Below are positions 1 to 6,499 of a DNA stretch of 6,499 nucleotides, one piece after another. Each line of letters starts with the position of its first letter. Position 1 is the first letter of the stretch. Below the pieces are notes generated by a model. The model saw nothing but the letters and a program-made list of their open reading frames with translations. It was not told the DNA's origin and ran no database searches. The translations under genes were made by a program, and so were the position numbers. The stretch lies in the IMG/VR virus record IMGVR_UViG_2713896779_000013; one strand, given 5' to 3'. The DNA is from a virus (Duplodnaviria; Heunggongvirae; Uroviricota; Caudoviricetes).

Positions 1-298
1 TGTACTTCAGGGGACAGCTTGTCAAAATTGACGTTCATCGGATCGGATTCTGGTTCGACCGGAATAAAGGAAGCGGATTCCTCATCCCAGCAGTTTTCCT
101 GCATATATTCGGTATCCCAGGAGTCGATGGCAGGGCGGGGCATGCCGGGTTTATCCTCGCAAACAAGAAATTTATAAGCGCAGTCCTGAGCAGCCGGATA
201 TTGCTCCAGGAATTGCCAGGTAAATTNNNNNNNNNNNNNNNNNNNNNNNNNNNNNNNNNNNNNNNNNNNNNNNNNNAAATCCCTGCCATTGCTGGCAT
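1..298 (-). CDS. hypothetical prophage early-left protein, partial (C-terminus lies beyond window start; 5' part interrupted by N-run)
   Basis: Minus-strand frame is open from 226 down to position 1 with a protein-like translation (...FTWQFLEQYPAAQDCAYKFLVCEDKPGMPRPAIDSWDTEYMQENCWDEESASFIPVEPESDPMNVNFDKLSPEV, running off the window). This is a different frame from the supplied 35..298 ORF. A candidate ATG at 298..296 sits upstream of the N-run 227-276, so start and frame continuity cannot be verified. No family recognised. Confidence 0.4.
227..276. other. run of 50 N (assembly gap or masked sequence)
   Basis: Literal n characters in the sequence; breaks the minus-strand gene at the left end. 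Confidence 0.99.
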
Positions 299-2324: not shown

Positions 2325-2801
2325 TTAAGTTCCAGTTTTTGTGATGTTCTGGCTTTTCCGTTCAGATTCTAGAGCTTTCAGATACTTACCCACTTTCATT
2401 TCCATCGCTGCTATGTAGGCGCGAACATCGTGGTCAACCCAATCTGGTTCTGTAGCATTTCCAGATAACAGGAAAGCTACAATCGCTCTTATTTCATCAG
2501 AGGCTGCTTGATAAAGGTTGTTTATATCTAAAAGTTCACTTTTTGTATCTGAATTGGTGGGGGTTGGTATGGGGTATTCGTTAAGCCCCCAATGCTCTGG
2601 ACCAACAACATCAGAAAAGAAACGCCATAATTCTGGAAGTTTATCTTTACTTATAGAGCCTTTCTTAATCCAGTCATAAATTGATGGTGGTTGGACTTTG
2701 AAGTGGCGTGCGACCTCCGCCTTTGATTTGACGGATCCCGATGCGATTTTTTTGTTAATGGCCTGCTCTATCGCTCGGCCTAAGTCTTTACCACTAAGCA
2801 T
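2325..2801 (-). CDS. racR: prophage repressor, XRE-family HTH (RacR-like, CI functional analogue), 158 aa
   Basis: ATG 2801..2799, 158 aa. N-terminal HTH-like segment (GSVKSKAEVARHFKVQPPSIYDWIKKG). Divergent from a cro-like gene, between two operator clusters. Length and context match E. coli K-12 Rac racR (from memory, not searched). Confidence 0.8.
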   Translation of the reverse strand: MLSGKDLGRAIEQAINKKIASGSVKSKAEVARHFKVQPPSIYDWIKKGSISKDKLPELWRFFSDVVGPEHWGLNEYPIPTPTNSDTKSELLDINNLYQAASDEIRAIVAFLLSGNATEPDWVDHDVRAYIAAMEMKVGKYLKALESERKSQNITKTGT

Positions 2802-2824
2802 TGCTTAATATTCTCCTATGCTCA

Positions 2825-2898
2825 TTGCATTAGGCAATCCCTACCTTTATCGCATTAGGCACAGCCTATTGACATCTGTGTTAGGCGTCGCCTAATAT
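2825..2898 (+). promoter_or_regulatory. OR-like operator region with pR-like promoter for ydaS
   Basis: ATTAGGC at 2829-2835 and 2854-2860; perfect 15-bp palindrome TTAGGCGTCGCCTAA at 2881-2895. -35 TTGACA 2869-2874, 18-nt spacer, -10 TAATAT 2893-2898, with the palindrome overlapping spacer and -10. A leftward repressor promoter on the other strand was not confidently located. Confidence 0.55.
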
Positions 2899-2924
2899 TT
2901 CTGTGTGTTTTTGGAGTTCATTCG

Positions 2925-3221
2925 ATGAAAAAAGAGAACTATTCATTCAAGCAAGCTTGTGCTGTTGTCGGTGGGCAATCAGCAATGGCTAGGCTTTTAG
3001 GTGTATCACCTCCAAGCGTAAATCAATGGATCAAAGGGGTACGTCAATTGCCTGCCGAGAGATGTCCAGCAATTGAACGTGCAACAAGAGGTGAGGTTCT
3101 GTGCGAAGAACTTCGTCCTGATATTGACTGGTCATATTTACGACGTTCGGCATGTTGTTCGCAGAATATGTCAGTGAAGCAACTAAATGACAGTAACAAA
3201 TCCTCATTTGATCATACCTGA
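2925..3221 (+). CDS. ydaS: Cro-like HTH regulator (YdaS family), 98 aa
   Basis: ATG 2925 with GGAG 8 nt upstream. HTH-like segment QSAMARLLGVSPPSVNQWIKG. First gene of the rightward operon, divergent from the repressor; 98 aa matches K-12 YdaS length (from memory). Confidence 0.8.
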   Translation: MKKENYSFKQACAVVGGQSAMARLLGVSPPSVNQWIKGVRQLPAERCPAIERATRGEVLCEELRPDIDWSYLRRSACCSQNMSVKQLNDSNKSSFDHT

Positions 3222-3243
3222 AACATCAAGAGGCAAATGATTC

Positions 3244-3669
3244 ATGAAAATCAAGCATGAACACATCCGCATGGCGATGAATGCCTGGGCGCGTCCTGAT
3301 GGCGAAAAAGTTCCAGCAGCTGGAATAACCCAGGCTTATTTTGAGTTGGGTATGACGTTTCCTGAACTGTATGACGATAGCCATCCGGAAGCCTTGGCTC
3401 GCAATACCCAGAAAATTTTCCGCTGGGTAGAGAAAGACACCCCTGATGCAGTTGAAAAAATTCAGACGTTGTTACCAGCGATCGAAAAGGCAATGCCACC
3501 TTTGCTGGTGGCCAGAATGCGCAGCCACAGTTCAGCTTATTTTCGGGAGCTGGTGGAGACGCGGGAGCGACTGGTGAGAGACGCTGATGATTTTGTCGCA
3601 GTGGCAATCGCCGGTTTCAATCAGATGAACCGTGGTGGCCCGGCAGGAAATGCTGTGGCAGTTCATTGA
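3244..3669 (+). CDS. ydaT: CII-like protein (YdaT family), ~141 aa
   Basis: ATG 3244 with AGAGG upstream. Immediately follows the cro-like gene, as ydaT does in Rac-type prophages. Length is close to K-12 YdaT (140 aa, from memory). Confidence 0.8.
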   Translation: MKIKHEHIRMAMNAWARPDGEKVPAAGITQAYFELGMTFPELYDDSHPEALARNTQKIFRWVEKDTPDAVEKIQTLLPAIEKAMPPLLVARMRSHSSAYFRELVETRERLVRDADDFVAVAIAGFNQMNRGGPAGNAVAVH

Positions 3670-3740
3670 CTGACAATAGCCATATCGAATCGCTTCCGGC
3701 AACTCGTGAGTAAAAAGATTCGGTATCAGAAGAGGTGAGT

Positions 3741-4888
3741 ATGGCTAACGCCTGGCTCAGATTATGGCATGACATGCCAAATGACCCTAAGTGGCGAACA
3801 ATTGCCAGGGTGTCAGGGCAGCCAATTGCAACAGTGATGGCAGTGTATATCCACCTCCTGGTGAGCGCGTCACGAAATGTCACGCGAGGTCACATTGATG
3901 TCACGACAGAAGATTTGGCAAGTGCGCTCGACGTGACAGAAGAGGTAATTGATTCAATTTTGCAGACGATGCAGGGGCGGGTACTTGATGGTGATTTAAT
4001 CACTGGATGGGAAAAACGCCAGGTGCTGAAAGAGGACAACGGCAATATTTCGCAAACCGCAAAATCTCCGGCAGAGCGCAAGAGGGCGCAGCGAGAGAGG
4101 GAAAGAAAGCGGGAACAAAATGGCGATTGTCACGGCGAGTCACGAAATGTCACGCACATGTCACGACGAGTCACGACAGATAAAGATACAGATAAAGATA
4201 CAGATCAAGAAGATCAAAACACTATGGACCATGGCGTAAAAAACGCCACGAACCAGGCAGGGGATGTTCAGACCGTCAATCCTGGTCAGCCAGCAGGCAC
4301 GACACCGNNNNNNNNNNNNNNNNNNNNNNNNNNNNNNNNNNNNNNNNNNNNNNNNNNAAGCCGATTCAGCGTATGCGCTGAAAGCCGATTCGGGCGCTGT
4401 GCAGCAGGTGATGACCGCAAGGCAGGAGCAATCACACCAACTTCAGCAGCCTGAAGCCGATTCCGCCATTCAGCGGGAAGCCGATCGGGTAGTCCCGGAA
4501 AACACCGGTCAGTCTGTGGGACGAGTGGATTATCCGGATGTGTTCGAACAGGTCTGGCGGGAGTACCCGTTGCGTGCTGGGGCAAACCCGAAGAAATCCG
4601 CTTTCAGTGCCTGGAAGGCCAGATTACGCGAGGGGGTGCCACCAGAGGCCATGCTGGATGGCGTGAGGCGTTACGCAAGATACTTGGCGGCTACCGGGAA
4701 AACGGGAACGGAATTTGTTCAGCGAGCGACGACGTTTTTTGGACCGGACCGGAATTTTGAGAACCCCTGGTTGCTCCCGGTAAGCGGCACGAACAACCAG
4801 CGTTGTGTGAATCATATTTCTGANNNNNNNNNNNNNNNNNNNNNNNNNNNNNNNNNNNNNNNNNNNNNNNNNNCTGGTCATGAGGTAA
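3741..4888 (+). CDS. ydaU: replication initiation protein, YdaU-like (DUF1376-type N-terminus); interrupted by two N-runs, frame changes across the first gap, 3' end uncertain
   Basis: ATG 3741 with AAGAGG and a 5-nt spacer (supplied ORF starts at GTG 3735). N-terminal MANAWLRLWHDMPNDPKWRTIARVSGQPIATVMAVYIHLL resembles the YdaU/DUF1376 family. After the 4308-4357 gap the protein-like frame is a different one and stays open 4360-4821 (contains DYPDVFEQVWREYPLRAGANPKK...). Proposed end at TAA 4886-4888 is a guess; alternatives are TGA 4881-4883 or 4944. Could be two genes or a pseudogene. Confidence 0.5.
3869..3905. repeat. four GTCACG direct repeats at 10-11 bp spacing inside the replication gene (iteron-like cluster 1)
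   Basis: GTCACG at 3869, 3879, 3900 and GTCACa at 3889; includes the 16-mer TCACGAAATGTCACGC that recurs near 4141. Confidence 0.55.
4130..4220. repeat. iteron-like cluster 2 (about five GTCACG/TCACG repeats at roughly 10-bp spacing) followed by an A+T-rich tandem repeat (GATAAAGATACA x2, GATCAAGAA, GATCAAAAC)
   Basis: Read directly: ...GTCACGgcgaGTCACGaaatGTCACGcacatGTCACGacgaGTCACGacaGATAAAGATACAGATAAAGATACAGATCAAGAAGATCAAAAC. Coordinates +/-1 because of a one-base disagreement between my reading and the ORF track in this line. Iterons plus an A+T-rich segment resemble the lambda ori inside gene O. Confidence 0.5.
4308..4357. other. run of 50 N (assembly gap or masked sequence) inside the replication gene
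   Basis: Literal n characters; lies between the A+T-rich repeat and the AAGCCGATTC repeats, and the coding frame differs on either side. Confidence 0.99.
4358..4487. repeat. AAGCCGATTC direct repeats on a 24-bp period (4358, 4382, 4454, degenerate at 4478)
   Basis: Exact 10-mers at 4358-4367, 4382-4391, 4454-4463 and AAGCCGATC at 4478-4486; spacings 24, 72 (3x24) and 24. They also encode 8-residue peptide repeats (ADSAYALK / ADSGAVQQ / ADSAIQRE / ADRVVPEN), so could be a linker repeat, DNA iterons, or both. Confidence 0.5.
4824..4873. other. run of 50 N (assembly gap or masked sequence) at the 3' end of the replication gene
   Basis: Literal n characters; prevents defining the stop of the YdaU-like gene. 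Confidence 0.99.
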
Positions 4889-4903
4889 TTTTCAGGAGGG
4901 CTT

Positions 4904-5326
4904 GTGGCAAAAGTTTTTACACAAGAAGAGCGGGAAAAAATTAAAGGGCAGGTTCTTGAACTCGTACGCCAGAGTGGGCGCGAGACGTTACGACAACTGG
5001 AAGCTAAAACTGGGGCAACAAGATATCTGATGAGCGTTCTGGCCAGAGAGCTGGTTGCCAGTGGCGATGTATACAACTCTGGTTACGGGTTATTCCCGTC
5101 TGAACAGGCGCGTAAGGACTGGCAAAATACCCGTAAAAAGCTCTCAAGGGCAAAGCTGAAGAAACCTGCAGTGGTTGATCCGGACCTTATCTGGTCGTTA
5201 CCAGACGGCGAAATACGCCGCTACGACAGGCACCAGAACATAATTTGTCGTGAGAGCAGGAGGAGCGAAGTTATGCAGCGTGTGCTGGCGTTCTATCGGG
5301 GAAACTTTCAGGAGGTGATGGAGTGA
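4904..5326 (+). CDS. hypothetical protein (~140 aa), possible winged-helix/HTH segment
   Basis: GTG 4904 with AGGAGG at 4894-4899 (spacer 4 nt); stop TGA 5324-5326 overlaps the next gene's GTG (GTGA). HTH-like stretch ETLRQLEAKTGATRYLMSVLARELVASG. Sits where K-12 Rac has ydaV but is shorter, with no Walker motifs. No family recognised. Confidence 0.55.
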   Translation: MAKVFTQEEREKIKGQVLELVRQSGRETLRQLEAKTGATRYLMSVLARELVASGDVYNSGYGLFPSEQARKDWQNTRKKLSRAKLKKPAVVDPDLIWSLPDGEIRRYDRHQNIICRESRRSEVMQRVLAFYRGNFQEVME

Positions 5327-5619
5327 GGGTGAGAGTTTATATTGCCGGTCCAATGACGGGATATGAAAATTTCAACCGTGAGGCATTTCACAAGGTGGAA
5401 GAGGAACTGAAACGGGAAGGGCATACCGTCTTAAACCCGGCAGTACTTCCGGACGGGCTGACACAGCCGCACTACATGGATATTTGCATGGCAATGATTC
5501 GTTGTGTGGATGCGATTTACATGCTGAATGGCTGGCAGCGGTCAGCGGGCGCTAAGGCAGAGCTGGCACTGGCGGAGAAACTGGGGCATGCGGTGATTTA
5601 TCAGGAGGTGGCTCAATGA
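5323..5619 (+). CDS. DUF4406 family protein (nucleoside 2-deoxyribosyltransferase-like fold), ~98 aa
   Basis: GTG 5323 (alternative GTG 5329) with GGAGG at 5311-5315; start overlaps the upstream stop (GTGA). N-terminus RVYIAGPMTGYENFNREAF..., then ...VLNPA... and ...IRCVDAIYMLNGWQRSAGAKAELALAEKLG match my recollection of the DUF4406 pattern common in phage genomes. Confidence 0.7.
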   Translation: MRVRVYIAGPMTGYENFNREAFHKVEEELKREGHTVLNPAVLPDGLTQPHYMDICMAMIRCVDAIYMLNGWQRSAGAKAELALAEKLGHAVIYQEVAQ

Positions 5620-6077
5620 GAGAGGTTAACTATGAGGCGCTTCGTGAGGCAGCACAAAACTATCAGTCGACGCTGGCGTGGTATCAGGCTACCCCGGACA
5701 GCCCAAATGCTGAACGGGATTGTGATGCGGCTCTTGCTGCGTTTAAGCGTCATATCCGTCATCGGGAAGCGGATATTATCGCTGGTTTGCTGGATGGACT
5801 GGAAGAAGCAAAATCACAACTCAACGAGCAGCGTGAGTATTACGAAGGCGTTATCTCTGATGGGAGCAAGCGTATTGCTGAACTGGATGCGCGGGAAGTT
5901 CAATTACCGACTCGCTACGACCTTCGATATGGACACCCGATAAATGCAGATGAGCGACATGTCATGATACCTAAAGAAAATGGCAGTTGGCTTTACCTGA
6001 TTGACCTAGAACACGCATTACGCGTCGCTGGCATTCGCATCAAAGGAGAGGAGCATGGAAATAAAACCAGAGGATGA
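5616..6077 (+). CDS. hypothetical protein (~153 aa), possibly Ead/Ea22-like
   Basis: ATG 5616 overlaps the upstream stop (ATGA). N-terminus MREVNYEALREAAQNYQ... resembles what I recall of the conserved N-terminus of Ead/Ea22-like prophage proteins; the family call is tentative. Confidence 0.6.
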   Translation: MREVNYEALREAAQNYQSTLAWYQATPDSPNAERDCDAALAAFKRHIRHREADIIAGLLDGLEEAKSQLNEQREYYEGVISDGSKRIAELDAREVQLPTRYDLRYGHPINADERHVMIPKENGSWLYLIDLEHALRVAGIRIKGEEHGNKTRG

Positions 6078-6411
6078 GTTAAGCAATATCGTTTTATTTC
6101 CGGTAAAAGAGGATGACCCTCGTAATCAGGTTAATTTTCTTTATGAGCCATCGGAAAGACCATATTGTCATCACGCCTCTGTCCGGGTTGACGAAAAAGA
6201 GCGTCAGGTCCGCTGTAAAATCTGCGGTGCAGTTGTGGAGCCATTTGACTGGATGCTCTCTGTGGCGAAAAGAGAAACTAGGCTGGCAGATGATGTAAAG
6301 CTATTGCGCCAGGAGGAACAGGAAAGGCGGAAAAATATAGAAAAGTTAATTCAGATTGAGCGTAACGCGAAAGCGCGGATACGCAGGGTGACAAAATCCA
6401 GAACTGAATAA
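6055..6411 (+). CDS. hypothetical zinc-ribbon protein with basic, probably coiled-coil C-terminus (~118 aa)
   Basis: ATG 6055 with GGAGAGGAG immediately upstream; overlaps the previous gene by 23 nt. Putative metal ligands C-H-H ...(13 aa)... C-K-I-C (YCHHASVRVDEKERQVRCKICG), followed by a charged segment LRQEEQERRKNIEKLIQIERNAKARIRR. Stop TAA 6409-6411. Confidence 0.6.
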   Translation: MEIKPEDELSNIVLFPVKEDDPRNQVNFLYEPSERPYCHHASVRVDEKERQVRCKICGAVVEPFDWMLSVAKRETRLADDVKLLRQEEQERRKNIEKLIQIERNAKARIRRVTKSRTE

Positions 6412-6461
6412 ATAAATTTAGCGCTGTAAATAAAATCTAATCCTTAACTGGAGGTATATTT

Positions 6462-6499
6462 ATGTTAAATACACAGAAAGCCATTAATGCGGAAAAATA
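6462..6499 (+). CDS. start of a further rightward gene (partial, runs off window end)
   Basis: ATG 6462 preceded by GGAGG at 6450-6454 (spacer 7 nt); translation MLNTQKAINAEK... with only 12 codons visible. Confidence 0.3.
   Translation, partial: MLNTQKAINAEK

Follow-up and report, generated by a model that had tools for sequence, protein, structure and literature searches.

The nin region of phage lambda, which extends from ren to Q, consists of small, overlapping, dispensable early genes located between the replication genes and Q. Ren provides the phage with resistance to Rex exclusion. Lambda Ea22, another protein relevant here, is prolysogenic (PMC7093339, PMC10834534), and swapping of C-terminal modules among Ea22 proteins has already been described (PMC8614690). 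In the nucleoside 2-deoxyribosyltransferase (NDT) superfamily, DmtZ, a phage enzyme, acts both as a dAMP N-glycosidase and as a deoxyribose-5-phosphate transferase, and its triad is Tyr6/Asn77/Glu103 (PMC12884076).

Here we analyze four small genes, denoted g1 to g4, that follow the replication gene in a window of 6,499 nucleotides (the whole stretch of DNA under study). The window belongs to a Rac-like prophage adjoining yccA in Escherichia coli O121:H19 and is 100% identical to the record NZ_CP028110.1. We put at about 70% the probability that g1 to g4 are ordinary mosaic accessory genes of a lambda-like E. coli prophage, of the nin type, that is, routine lambdoid prophage anatomy.

Organization of the locus

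The genes relevant to the analysis are as follows.

3741-4863, + strand: replication initiator gene (encoding 356 aa in the identical record; annotated at 10890-11960 of locus L001)
4904-5326, + strand: g1, DUF977 protein, homolog of lambda Ren (PF06163, phrog_142)
5323-5619, + strand: g2, DUF4406 protein (PF14359, predicted structure)
5616-6077, + strand: g3, Ea22 homolog (PF13935, phrog_250, BLASTP)
6055-6411, + strand: g4, CHCC zinc-ribbon protein (phrog_1621, invariant Cys and His residues)
6462-6499, + strand: start of the next gene of the operon (70 aa, continuing past the end of the window; phrog_4659, 3.4e-50; L001 13559-13771)

The replication gene is split by two 50-N masks into apparent open reading frames 3735-4454 and 4264-4944, and its end coordinate is taken from the identical record, as the stop codon falls within an N run. 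The four genes downstream encode proteins of 140, 98, 153 and 118 aa and start with GTG, GTG, ATG and ATG, respectively. The earlier note had described them as four small overlapping genes, on which the open reading frames, the sequence, the family matches and the NCBI PGAP annotation of NZ_CP028110.1 in RefSeq, where the same four coding sequences are already present, all agree. The first two junctions are 4-nt overlaps, GTGA at 5323-5326 (g1/g2) and ATGA at 5616-5619 (g2/g3), and the third is a 23-nt overlap at 6055-6077 (g3/g4). The overlap of 4 nt upstream of the DUF4406 gene is retained in 78 of the 79 related loci. Strong Shine-Dalgarno sites, AGGAGG, are located 4-7 nt before the starts of the first three genes, at 4894-4899 (4 nt ahead of the GTG of g1), 5310-5315 (g2) and 5603-5608 (g3), whereas that of g4, AAGGAGAGGAG at 6043-6053, ends 1 nt short of the ATG. 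Because each gene combines a Shine-Dalgarno site with a stop-start overlap, coupled initiation of g1 to g4, as the earlier note had proposed, is plausible. A sequence scan found no promoter-like or terminator-like sites in 4400-6499, which is consistent with a single transcript. An Rfam search of the window gave zero matches, as did NCBIfam for the g1-g4 proteins.

We also considered a programmed frameshift fusing g3 and g4 but rejected it: g4 lies in the +1 frame, the overlap contains no slippery heptamer, and g4 starts with an ATG behind a strong Shine-Dalgarno site of its own. The databases do contain fused g3-g4 forms (P0270, P0306); these are recombinant genes in their own right.

A mosaic block with homologs of Ren and Ea22

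The first gene starts 40 nt past the replication gene, that is, in the ren position, and its product matches DUF977 in Pfam (3.1e-29; 102 bits, cut-off 22.1) and the 'Ren-like exclusion protein' family phrog_142 (1.3e-45; lambda Ren itself, 1.6e-41). In a direct BLASTP comparison, g1 and lambda Ren match in the C-terminal motif CRxSxxMxRVLAxY (4e-5). The N-terminal part of g1 is probably a winged helix-turn-helix. A role of g1 against Rex would be carried over from lambda by analogy, at low sequence identity. A relationship between g1 and K-12 YdaW was rejected, there being no similarity between the two proteins, and YdaW belongs to DUF1627. The literature yielded incidental mentions only of DUF977 and DUF4406, three in the case of DUF4406, and nothing on a prophage protein under the name 'LygF'.

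The third protein, g3, scores above the cut-off for Ead_Ea22 (PF13935; 6.2e-11, 43.5 bits against 27), matches phrog_250 (1.5e-41), and is 40% identical to lambda Ea22 over the N-terminal and coiled-coil parts (BLASTP, 5e-17, residues 1-108); past residue 108, BLASTP detected no similarity to lambda Ea22. The function of g3 might be that of lambda Ea22, to judge by this homology at low sequence identity, and the PGAP label 'RseB domain-containing' on g3 is probably wrong.

The identification of g4 as a zinc-ribbon protein, made in the earlier note, is borne out by C38, H40, C54 and C57, which are invariant in 35 sequences and form a CHCC ribbon. In the AlphaFold2 model (pLDDT 74, with the helix above 90), a disordered N-terminus, in which an ELSNVVxFP motif is conserved, precedes a small ribbon at about 38-61 and one long basic helix that spans 63-117. 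The protein matches phrog_1621 (1.4e-55), and the sole match in the fold search was a TFIIB zinc ribbon, a generic one at E 0.14. We rejected g4 as a relative of lambda Ea8.5, given that BLASTP produced no meaningful alignment and that the two proteins belong to different PHROGs (1621 and 6325).

The last ~64 codons of g3 together with g4 are 96-98% identical to DNA of Stx2a phage. In Stx phages, g4 follows Ea22-like genes, and the 70-aa gene travels with g4. In phage ArgO145, an Ea22-like gene is followed by the g4 homolog with the same 23-nt overlap, and a phrog_4659 gene again comes directly after the g4 homolog, but in a different genomic region, the early-left region, where the g3 C-terminus, g4 and the 70-aa gene are all located. 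The g3-g4 part is an exo-xis-type module shifted into the rightward operon. More generally, block architectures vary among related loci: some part of the block is matched in 4355 of the 5426 E. coli genomes, and at least 80% of it in 538. In Enterobacter prophages, the gene order is O-P-(wHTH)-DUF4406-Ea22-...-NinB-NinE-NinG-Q.

The DUF4406 protein and its candidate active site

The assignment of g2 to DUF4406, suggested from the sequence in the earlier note, holds across the whole domain (1.9e-37; 128 bits, cut-off 22; residues 4-93 on profile positions 2-91 of 91). The score against the Pfam NDT family (PF05014) is 15.2 bits (E 0.024), under the gathering threshold of 28.8, and neither g1-g4 nor the DUF4406 profile found more than chance-level matches among PDB sequences. 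In agreement with the fold relationship that the note had pointed to, the confidently predicted structure of g2 is an alpha/beta fold of the NDT type, and according to this model g2 is a minimal, four-stranded, shortened member of the NDT/DNPH1/MilB/TIR fold group. The closest structural neighbors of the model are nucleoside monophosphate hydrolases (MilB) and NDTs rather than TIRs, with a TM-score of ~0.5 when normalized to the targets.

Conservation was assessed in 146 family-wide DUF4406 representatives. G9, F22, Y51, S74 (139/139), G76 and E80 (137/139) are conserved throughout the family, and in 138/139 the position of Y6 is occupied by Tyr or Phe. The residue that lines up with the catalytic nucleophile is Glu80. 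Using hhalign and a human DNPH1 sequence checked against the PDB, we found that Y6, S74, G76 and E80 align colinearly with DNPH1 Y24, S98, G100 and E104, although not significantly (E 0.21); this is the broader alignment (A4), the narrow one (A1) having been discarded as misaligned. From these sequence comparisons, Tyr6, Ser74, Gly76 and Glu80 are the candidate catalytic residues. The third triad position, D53, is invariant in 43 enterobacterial sequences but is found in 68 of the 146 family representatives, and in hhalign the position equivalent to DNPH1 D80 is fixed no more closely than to plus or minus 2 residues. With regard to the catalytic residues, most are kept, the position of the Glu nucleophile among them, whereas the third triad position, family-wide, and the C-terminal segment are not.

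By analogy to the characterized enzymes, the likeliest of the roles considered for g2 is that of a (deoxy)nucleoside 5'-monophosphate N-glycosidase, which we suggest tentatively, at slightly below even odds. The protein stops at residue 98, just past strand 4, and lacks the C-terminal segment that, in NDT, DNPH1 and DmtZ, completes the active site of the partner subunit. Together with the incomplete family-wide conservation of the triad and the score below the Pfam NDT threshold, this absence could indicate that g2 is what remains of an NDT fold that has lost catalysis or purely binds a ligand, and that its role is regulatory or structural. We consider this unlikely because the near-invariance of Ser74, Gly76 and Glu80 across the family is a pattern typical of a preserved active site.

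Distribution of DUF4406 and possible roles in counter-defense or DNA modification

DUF4406 is a very large phage family (~17,500 clusters at 50% identity) that is represented in 545 isolated phages and in 1207 of the 5426 complete E. coli genomes (22%). Several phage records call DUF4406 genes dCMP deaminase or MazG-like pyrophosphatase where Pfam sees DUF4406 only; likewise, the actinophage genes annotated as 'deoxycytidylate deaminase' or 'MazG-like pyrophosphatase' were rejected as DUF4406 fusions, given that they contain the DUF4406 domain only.

The earlier note had raised, as speculation from the fold relationship, the possibility that the DUF4406 protein is involved in counter-defense or DNA modification; we found no support for either. 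A counter-defense island could work by g2 destroying or sequestering a nucleotide- or NAD-derived signal, as an enzyme or as a sponge, with g1 blocking Rex-type abortive infection; this appears quite unlikely. None of the PADLOC-DB 2.0 families matched g1-g4 at E values up to 0.01, neither fusions nor neighborhoods across phages link DUF4406 to known anti-defense genes, and the nearest folds of g2 are MilB and NDTs as opposed to TIRs. The 46 long DUF4406 representatives contain no informative fused domain; the only additional domains were DUF551 in one case and a ClpX zinc finger in another. Furthermore, the family is spread over lytic and temperate phages from many phyla, in which the usual context, as also seen in prophages, is that of replication, recombination and nucleotide genes (exonuclease/Erf/SSB; DnaQ/clamp/RusA/MazG; methyltransferase genes). 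A more specific variant, in which DUF4406 would be a minimal, open-pocket relative of NDT and TIR by which phages cleave or capture a nucleotide-derived immune signal of the host, or remove a toxic modified nucleotide that a defense system produces, with Ren and DUF4406 forming a small anti-exclusion module at the start of the nin region, strikes us as distinctly improbable.

Some of the neighborhoods could suggest that g2 acts in DNA base modification or exchange with a phage methyltransferase. In N15, the DUF4406 gene gp57 and the cytosine methyltransferase gene gp58 overlap by 20 nt, and DNA methyltransferase genes are located a few kb at most from DUF4406 in L001, Yersinia phage P840 and Arthrobacter phage TaylorSipht. 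Such adjacency is not general, however, being missing in the other phages and prophages examined and in the window; methyltransferases are common in such regions regardless, and the 98-aa g2 lacks any DNA-binding feature, so that we regard this role as highly improbable.

Replication genes and the ydaV position

According to the earlier note, the block sits where K-12 Rac carries the helicase-loader-like gene ydaV, and no ATPase is encoded. The latter is confirmed: neither the window nor its 25-kb context contains an ATPase gene, and g1-g4 do not match AAA+ ATPase families, whereas K-12 YdaV matches IstB_IS21 at 9e-20. The former is contradicted by synteny. K-12 Rac ends after ydaW, and in the related locus L013, the same DUF977-DUF4406-Ea22-Zn block comes after K-12-type ydaU (99.6%), ydaV (99%) and ydaW (96%); a ydaV-like ATPase is encoded upstream of the block in 23 of the 66 related loci; and in Enterobacter prophages, DUF4406 comes after lambda-type O and P. 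In both kinds of relatives, the block thus stands downstream of the replication genes, where the nin region begins. The replication protein of the window matches phrog_3729 over its full length (3.9e-256), and its C-terminal half matches phrog_1701, 'DnaD-like helicase loader' (5.5e-62). The proposal that the block takes on the role of the missing YdaV/DnaC-like loader, which its location directly after the replication gene and the lack of an ATPase gene could suggest, is therefore largely refuted and retains next to no probability, given this synteny, the lack of ATPase or helicase-binding family matches in g1-g4 and the loader-type half of the replication protein itself.

Discussion

The observations on this locus are best accommodated by the nin-type reading, in which the block would be the first part of a nin-type segment in the early-right operon of a Rac-like lambdoid prophage and no stand-in for the YdaV loader. 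On induction, a transcript started at the rightward early promoter would cross the cro-like gene ydaS, the CII-like gene ydaT and the replication genes before entering g1-g4, which would be translated by coupled initiation. The block would be an assembly of independently shuffling modules, not a single machine, with g1 contributing a Ren homolog, g3 an Ea22 homolog, and g4, a companion of Ea22-type genes, a zinc ribbon with a long helix. The structure of the genes, their families, the fold, the conserved residues, and the distribution and synteny are results of the analysis, whereas the reaction of g2, its substrates and all phenotypes are inferred. In g2, Glu80 would act as the nucleophile, positioned by Tyr6 by analogy to DNPH1, MilB and DmtZ, while Ser74 and the GPMTG loop would bind the 5'-phosphate. 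Cleavage of the N-glycosidic bond of a (deoxy)nucleoside monophosphate could then adjust or clean the nucleotide pool during phage DNA replication. The earlier note had set ordinary nin-region housekeeping against its own proposal; the position and distribution of the block largely agree with housekeeping, although g2 keeps most of the catalytic residues. Having retained the NDT nucleophile and lost a third of the fold, DUF4406 is a candidate enzyme in about one-fifth of the complete E. coli genomes.

Compared to DNPH1/Rcl, MilB/BcmB and DmtZ, the fold targets of 130-160 residues, g2 is short (98 residues) and lacks strand 5 and helix 5, hence the residues that DNPH1, MilB and DmtZ lend to the neighboring subunit; unlike the triad of these enzymes, the Asp/Asn position is not kept across the DUF4406 family. 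There is no Pfam model for DmtZ, nor has it been reported to belong to DUF4406. DUF1937 (PDB 1t1j, a hypothetical protein of Pseudomonas aeruginosa) is a separate Pfam family, against which g2 scores under the gathering threshold, at 19% identity.

Like lambda Ren, g1 belongs to PHROG 142 and directly follows the replication genes, but it is longer (140 aa compared to 96), the pairwise similarity is confined to ~20 residues, and lambda Ren lacks the Pfam match that places g1 in DUF977. Similarly, g3 and lambda Ea22 share both Ead_Ea22 and phrog_250, whereas the C-terminal domain of g3 is unrelated to the NMR-solved domain of lambda Ea22, and g3 forms part of the rightward operon, behind the replication gene, in contrast to lambda ea22, which lies between exo and xis. 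As a whole, the block resembles the lambda nin region, which itself contains neither a DUF4406 nor a zinc-ribbon gene; in the Enterobacter relatives, the DUF4406-Ea22 pair lies directly upstream of ninB-ninE-ninG-Q.

Four overlapping genes of known phage families

The four genes downstream of the replication gene are real but ordinary: all are members of known phage families with existing annotation, and their place at the start of the nin region is the normal one. In the following list, L001 denotes the matching annotated prophage record.

about 3741-4863 (L001 10890-11960): replication protein gene; its product combines a replisome-organiser-like N-terminal half with a loader-like C-terminal half
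4904-5326, + strand: g1, 140 aa ORF, DUF977
5323-5619, + strand: g2, 98 aa ORF, DUF4406
5616-6077, + strand: g3, 153 aa ORF, Ea22-like
6055-6411, + strand: g4, 118 aa ORF, putative zinc-ribbon protein

The overlapping arrangement described in the earlier note is confirmed by the ORF list, the sequence and the family matches: g1 and g2 join at GTGA (5323-5326), g2 and g3 at ATGA (5616-5619), and g3 and g4 share 23 nt (6055-6077). Each of the four proteins has Pfam or PHROGs matches far above chance, and the remaining ORFs of the stretch are short and lie either antisense or in alternate frames. Inspection of the sequence reveals a strong Shine-Dalgarno site before all four starts, AGGAGG at 4 nt from the start of g1 and 7 nt from those of g2 and g3, and AAGGAGAGGAG for g4, with its last base 1 nt ahead of the ATG. 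A scan of positions 4400-6499 found no promoter-like or terminator-like sites, and an Rfam search of the window returned no match. The best-supported reading is that g1-g4 are ordinary delayed-early accessory genes, which would be transcribed by read-through from the rightward promoter and whose translation would be coupled.

Source prophage

The block (1508 bases) matches E. coli O121:H19 chromosomes (e.g. NZ_CP028110.1) at 100% identity, and the annotated context there is a Rac-like lambdoid prophage adjoining yccA (L001). It begins with integrase, DUF4224, exonuclease, dicB and racR on one strand; these are followed by ydaS, a ydaT-like (CII-like) gene, the 356-aa replication protein, g1-g4, small genes, hokD, DUF968, RusA, DNA methyltransferase and lysis genes. 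PGAP names g1 'DUF977 family protein', g2 'DUF4406 domain-containing protein', g3 'sigma-E factor regulatory protein RseB domain-containing protein' and g4 'hypothetical protein'. The immunity region (window 2325-3669) is intact, with racR on the - strand followed by ydaS and the ydaT-like gene; PHROGs classes the YdaT-like protein as a CII-like activator and YdaS as a Cro/repressor-type regulator, and Pfam names both 'toxin'.

The three 50-N runs in the window (227-276, 4308-4357 and 4824-4873) do not preserve length: relative to the identical record, positions 2325-4300 are offset by 7149 and those from 4874 onward by 7097. As a result, the 356-aa replication gene, intact in L001, looks 52 nt longer in the window and has its frame shifted, giving the apparent ORFs 3735-4454 and 4264-4944.

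The block follows diverse replication modules and is itself mosaic

The earlier note had placed the cassette in the slot of ydaV, an assignment that proved wrong. The order in K-12 Rac is ydaU (DUF1376), ydaV (IstB-type ATPase) and ydaW (DUF1627), followed by a jump to rzpR. Among 80 IMG/VR loci with close DUF4406 homologues, the cassette is found after several different replication modules, and a ydaV-like gene lies upstream of it in 23 of the 66 loci with enough upstream sequence; 18 of these 66 encode the 356-aa replication protein and have no ydaV-like gene. One relative (L013) carries K-12-type ydaU (99.6%), ydaV (99%) and ydaW (96%) and then the DUF977-DUF4406-Ea22-zinc ribbon series, with g3 and g4 100% identical to those of the window. 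Prophages of Enterobacter hormaechei carry lambda-type O and P, then a small wHTH gene, DUF4406 and an Ea22-like gene, and after these NinB, NinE, NinG and Q. Thus, whatever replication module comes first, the block follows it and opens the nin region, and K-12 Rac has simply lost it. Given that the C-terminal half of the replication protein matches 'DnaD-like helicase loader' PHROGs (5.5e-62), there is no need to seek a loader function in the cassette.

K-12 YdaU, although otherwise unrelated, also has the last 19 residues of the replication protein (RCVNHISEPDNEIPPGFRG). This tail weakly resembles the C-terminus of the primosomal protein DnaT, at 19 bits, far below the cut-off, and may serve both proteins for docking to primosome proteins of the host.

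The composition of the block is variable. Upstream of DUF4406, the 80 loci encode DUF977 (60) or an HTH regulator-like ORF (19), joined by a -4 overlap in 78 of 79 loci; an Ea22-type ORF follows in 66 of 75. Some of the block is matched in 4355 of 5426 complete E. coli genomes, and at least 80% of it in only 538; DUF4406 alone is present in 1207, in up to four copies. Stx2a phages share the last 64 codons of g3 together with g4 at 96-98% identity; in ArgO145, this segment closes a 344-aa Ea22-like gene and makes up the next gene, in the leftward early region, with the 23-nt overlap and the 70-aa gene that comes after g4 both retained. Three database proteins (P0270, P0306 and P0307) are natural fusions among these neighbouring genes, which shows recombination between them; P0270 joins an Ea22 N-terminus to the whole of g4, and P0307 joins the g4 zinc ribbon to DUF977. 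Taken together, the variable neighbours, partial genome matches, Stx-phage segment and fusions indicate that g1-g4 are at least two or three shuffling modules and no conserved four-part system.

The proteins flanking DUF4406

g1 matches DUF977 (PF06163, 3.1e-29) and the 'Ren-like exclusion protein' family (phrog_142, 1.3e-45), which full-length lambda Ren also matches (1.6e-41); g1 and Ren share a C-terminal motif (BLASTP 4e-5). The lambda ren gene overlaps the end of P, so that g1 occupies the ren position. An N-terminal winged helix in g1 is suggested by MarR/HTH-type matches of lambda Ren and of the 114-aa protein at the corresponding position in an Enterobacter prophage, as well as by a match of g1 itself to a DNA-binding PHROG (7e-6). 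Ren reportedly confers resistance to Rex exclusion (Toothman and Herskowitz, 1980). g1 is unrelated to K-12 YdaW, which was rejected as a homologue.

By sequence comparison, g3 is a homologue of lambda Ea22 (40% identity over residues 1-108, E 5e-17; PF13935 above threshold), with a C-terminal 45 residues that do not align. Published descriptions divide Ea22 into a short N-terminus, a coiled coil that forms a tetramer and a C-terminal domain that varies, and report that it favours lysogeny (PMC10834534, PMC7093339, PMC8614690). The RseB name of g3 is doubtful and probably wrong because the underlying MucB_RseB match is marginal (23.3 vs 22.3 bits) and covers residues 65-116, a stretch that takes in the segment conserved with Ea22.

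g4 belongs to phrog_1621 (1.4e-55) and has no Pfam family above threshold; its homologues form only about 150 clusters, every named one from Enterobacterales. C38, H40, C54 and C57 are invariant, and the basic C-terminal stretch LRxEExxRRxNIEKLIQIERNAKARIRR is almost so. In the model (pLDDT 74), a disordered N-terminus leads into a small ribbon, which is followed by a single helix of 55 residues (helix pLDDT >90); the sole structural match of the model is the TFIIB zinc ribbon (E 0.14). The predicted disordered residues 1-35 (window 6055-6160) contain a nearly invariant short motif, E-x-ELSNVVxFP, resembling the linear peptide motifs through which proteins bind their partners. Lambda Ea8.5 was considered as a relative of g4 and rejected as unrelated.

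DUF4406 in other phages

An exhaustive profile search collected 17,519 DUF4406 clusters (50% identity, E up to 1e-3), and tblastn detected the family in 545 isolated phage genomes, among them Arthrobacter, Vibrio, Gordonia, Mycobacterium and Pseudomonas phages and N15 (gp57). The sampled neighbourhoods are early DNA-metabolism regions.

Examples of DUF4406 gene contexts
C130_2: exonuclease VIII, Erf, SSB, endonuclease
Gordonia phage RemRem: DnaQ, sliding clamp, RusA, MazG
A mycobacteriophage: WhiB, DnaQ
N15 and Yersinia P840: behind lysis genes, beside methyltransferases
Edwardsiella: leftward early region with RdgC, Ead, Eai
A Vibrio genome: adjoining an integrase
Contig with a Vibrio parahaemolyticus-type homologue: among unannotated small early genes

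A counter-defence role, raised in the earlier note, is conceivable but unsupported: PADLOC models do not match the g1-g4 proteins, no informative DUF4406 fusions were found, and the neighbours are DNA-metabolism genes. In N15, gp57 (L087, 3501-3833) overlaps the cytosine-5 DNA methyltransferase gene gp58 (L087, 3814-4809) by 20 nt, a link that is absent from most other contexts. In the sampled neighbourhoods outside Enterobacterales, neither DUF977 nor g4 lies beside DUF4406. One Enterobacter prophage carries an Abi_alpha (abortive infection) gene (L096, 5045-5779, - strand) two genes downstream of the DUF4406-Ea22 pair and on the strand opposite to it, which identifies this part of the prophage as a place where morons insert. 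Two Arthrobacter phage proteins (L085, 2980-3354; L086, 3004-3372) are named 'deoxycytidylate deaminase' and 'MazG-like pyrophosphatase'; Pfam shows only DUF4406 in both, and these annotations are likely errors spread via PHROG-style naming.

A truncated NDT fold with a putative catalytic glutamate

g2 matches DUF4406 (PF14359, 1.9e-37) and falls below the threshold of the nucleoside 2-deoxyribosyltransferase (NDT) family PF05014 (15.2 vs 28.8 bits). The relationship to the NDT fold that the earlier note proposed is right: with the confident AlphaFold2 model (43-sequence alignment; pLDDT 91.3; four strands and four helices), Foldseek ranks NDTs first in the PDB (2a0k, 8pqt, 6qai), followed by human DNPH1 and the CMP N-glycosidases MilB and BcmB. 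The TM-score is 0.73-0.78 on the query and only about 0.5 on the targets, so that g2, as modelled, amounts to two thirds of the fold, counted from the N-terminus. The protein stops behind strand 4, without the C-terminal strand and helix that, in NDT, DNPH1 and DmtZ, give residues to the active site of the partner subunit.

Across 146 DUF4406 representatives, G9, N18, F22, N38-P39-A40, P43, G45, Y51, M58, S74, G76 and E80 are near-invariant (S74 139/139, E80 137/139), and position 6 is Tyr or Phe in 138/139. The expected catalytic residues are conserved in part: Y6, S74 and E80 are, whereas D53 is found in only 68/146, yet is invariant within the enterobacterial subfamily, and the C-terminal segment is absent. 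A colinear profile alignment to human DNPH1 (sequence checked against PDB chains), not significant alone (E 0.21) and used only jointly with the fold match, pairs Y6/Y24, the GPMTG loop/GSIRG, S74/S98, G76/G100 and E80/E104, where E104 is the DNPH1 nucleophile. The Rcl/DNPH1 serine matching S74 touches the 5'-phosphate, and nucleoside-specific NDTs have Asp at this position, which would favour a nucleotide over a nucleoside as the likely substrate.

By analogy, we tentatively suggest, at slightly less than even odds, that g2 is a Glu80-dependent N-glycosidase, possibly with transferase activity, acting on a (deoxy)nucleoside 5'-monophosphate; such an enzyme would serve nucleotide-pool management while the phage replicates. 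Three weak points, namely the absent C-terminal segment, a third triad position that varies and the proximity of TIR folds, mean that g2 might act on another substrate or only bind a ligand. A precedent for the N-glycosidase assignment is the phage enzyme DmtZ which, unlike g2, is not reported as a DUF4406 protein; this member of the NDT superfamily is a dAMP hydrolase and deoxyribose-5-phosphate transferase with the triad Tyr6/Asn77/Glu103 (PMC12884076).
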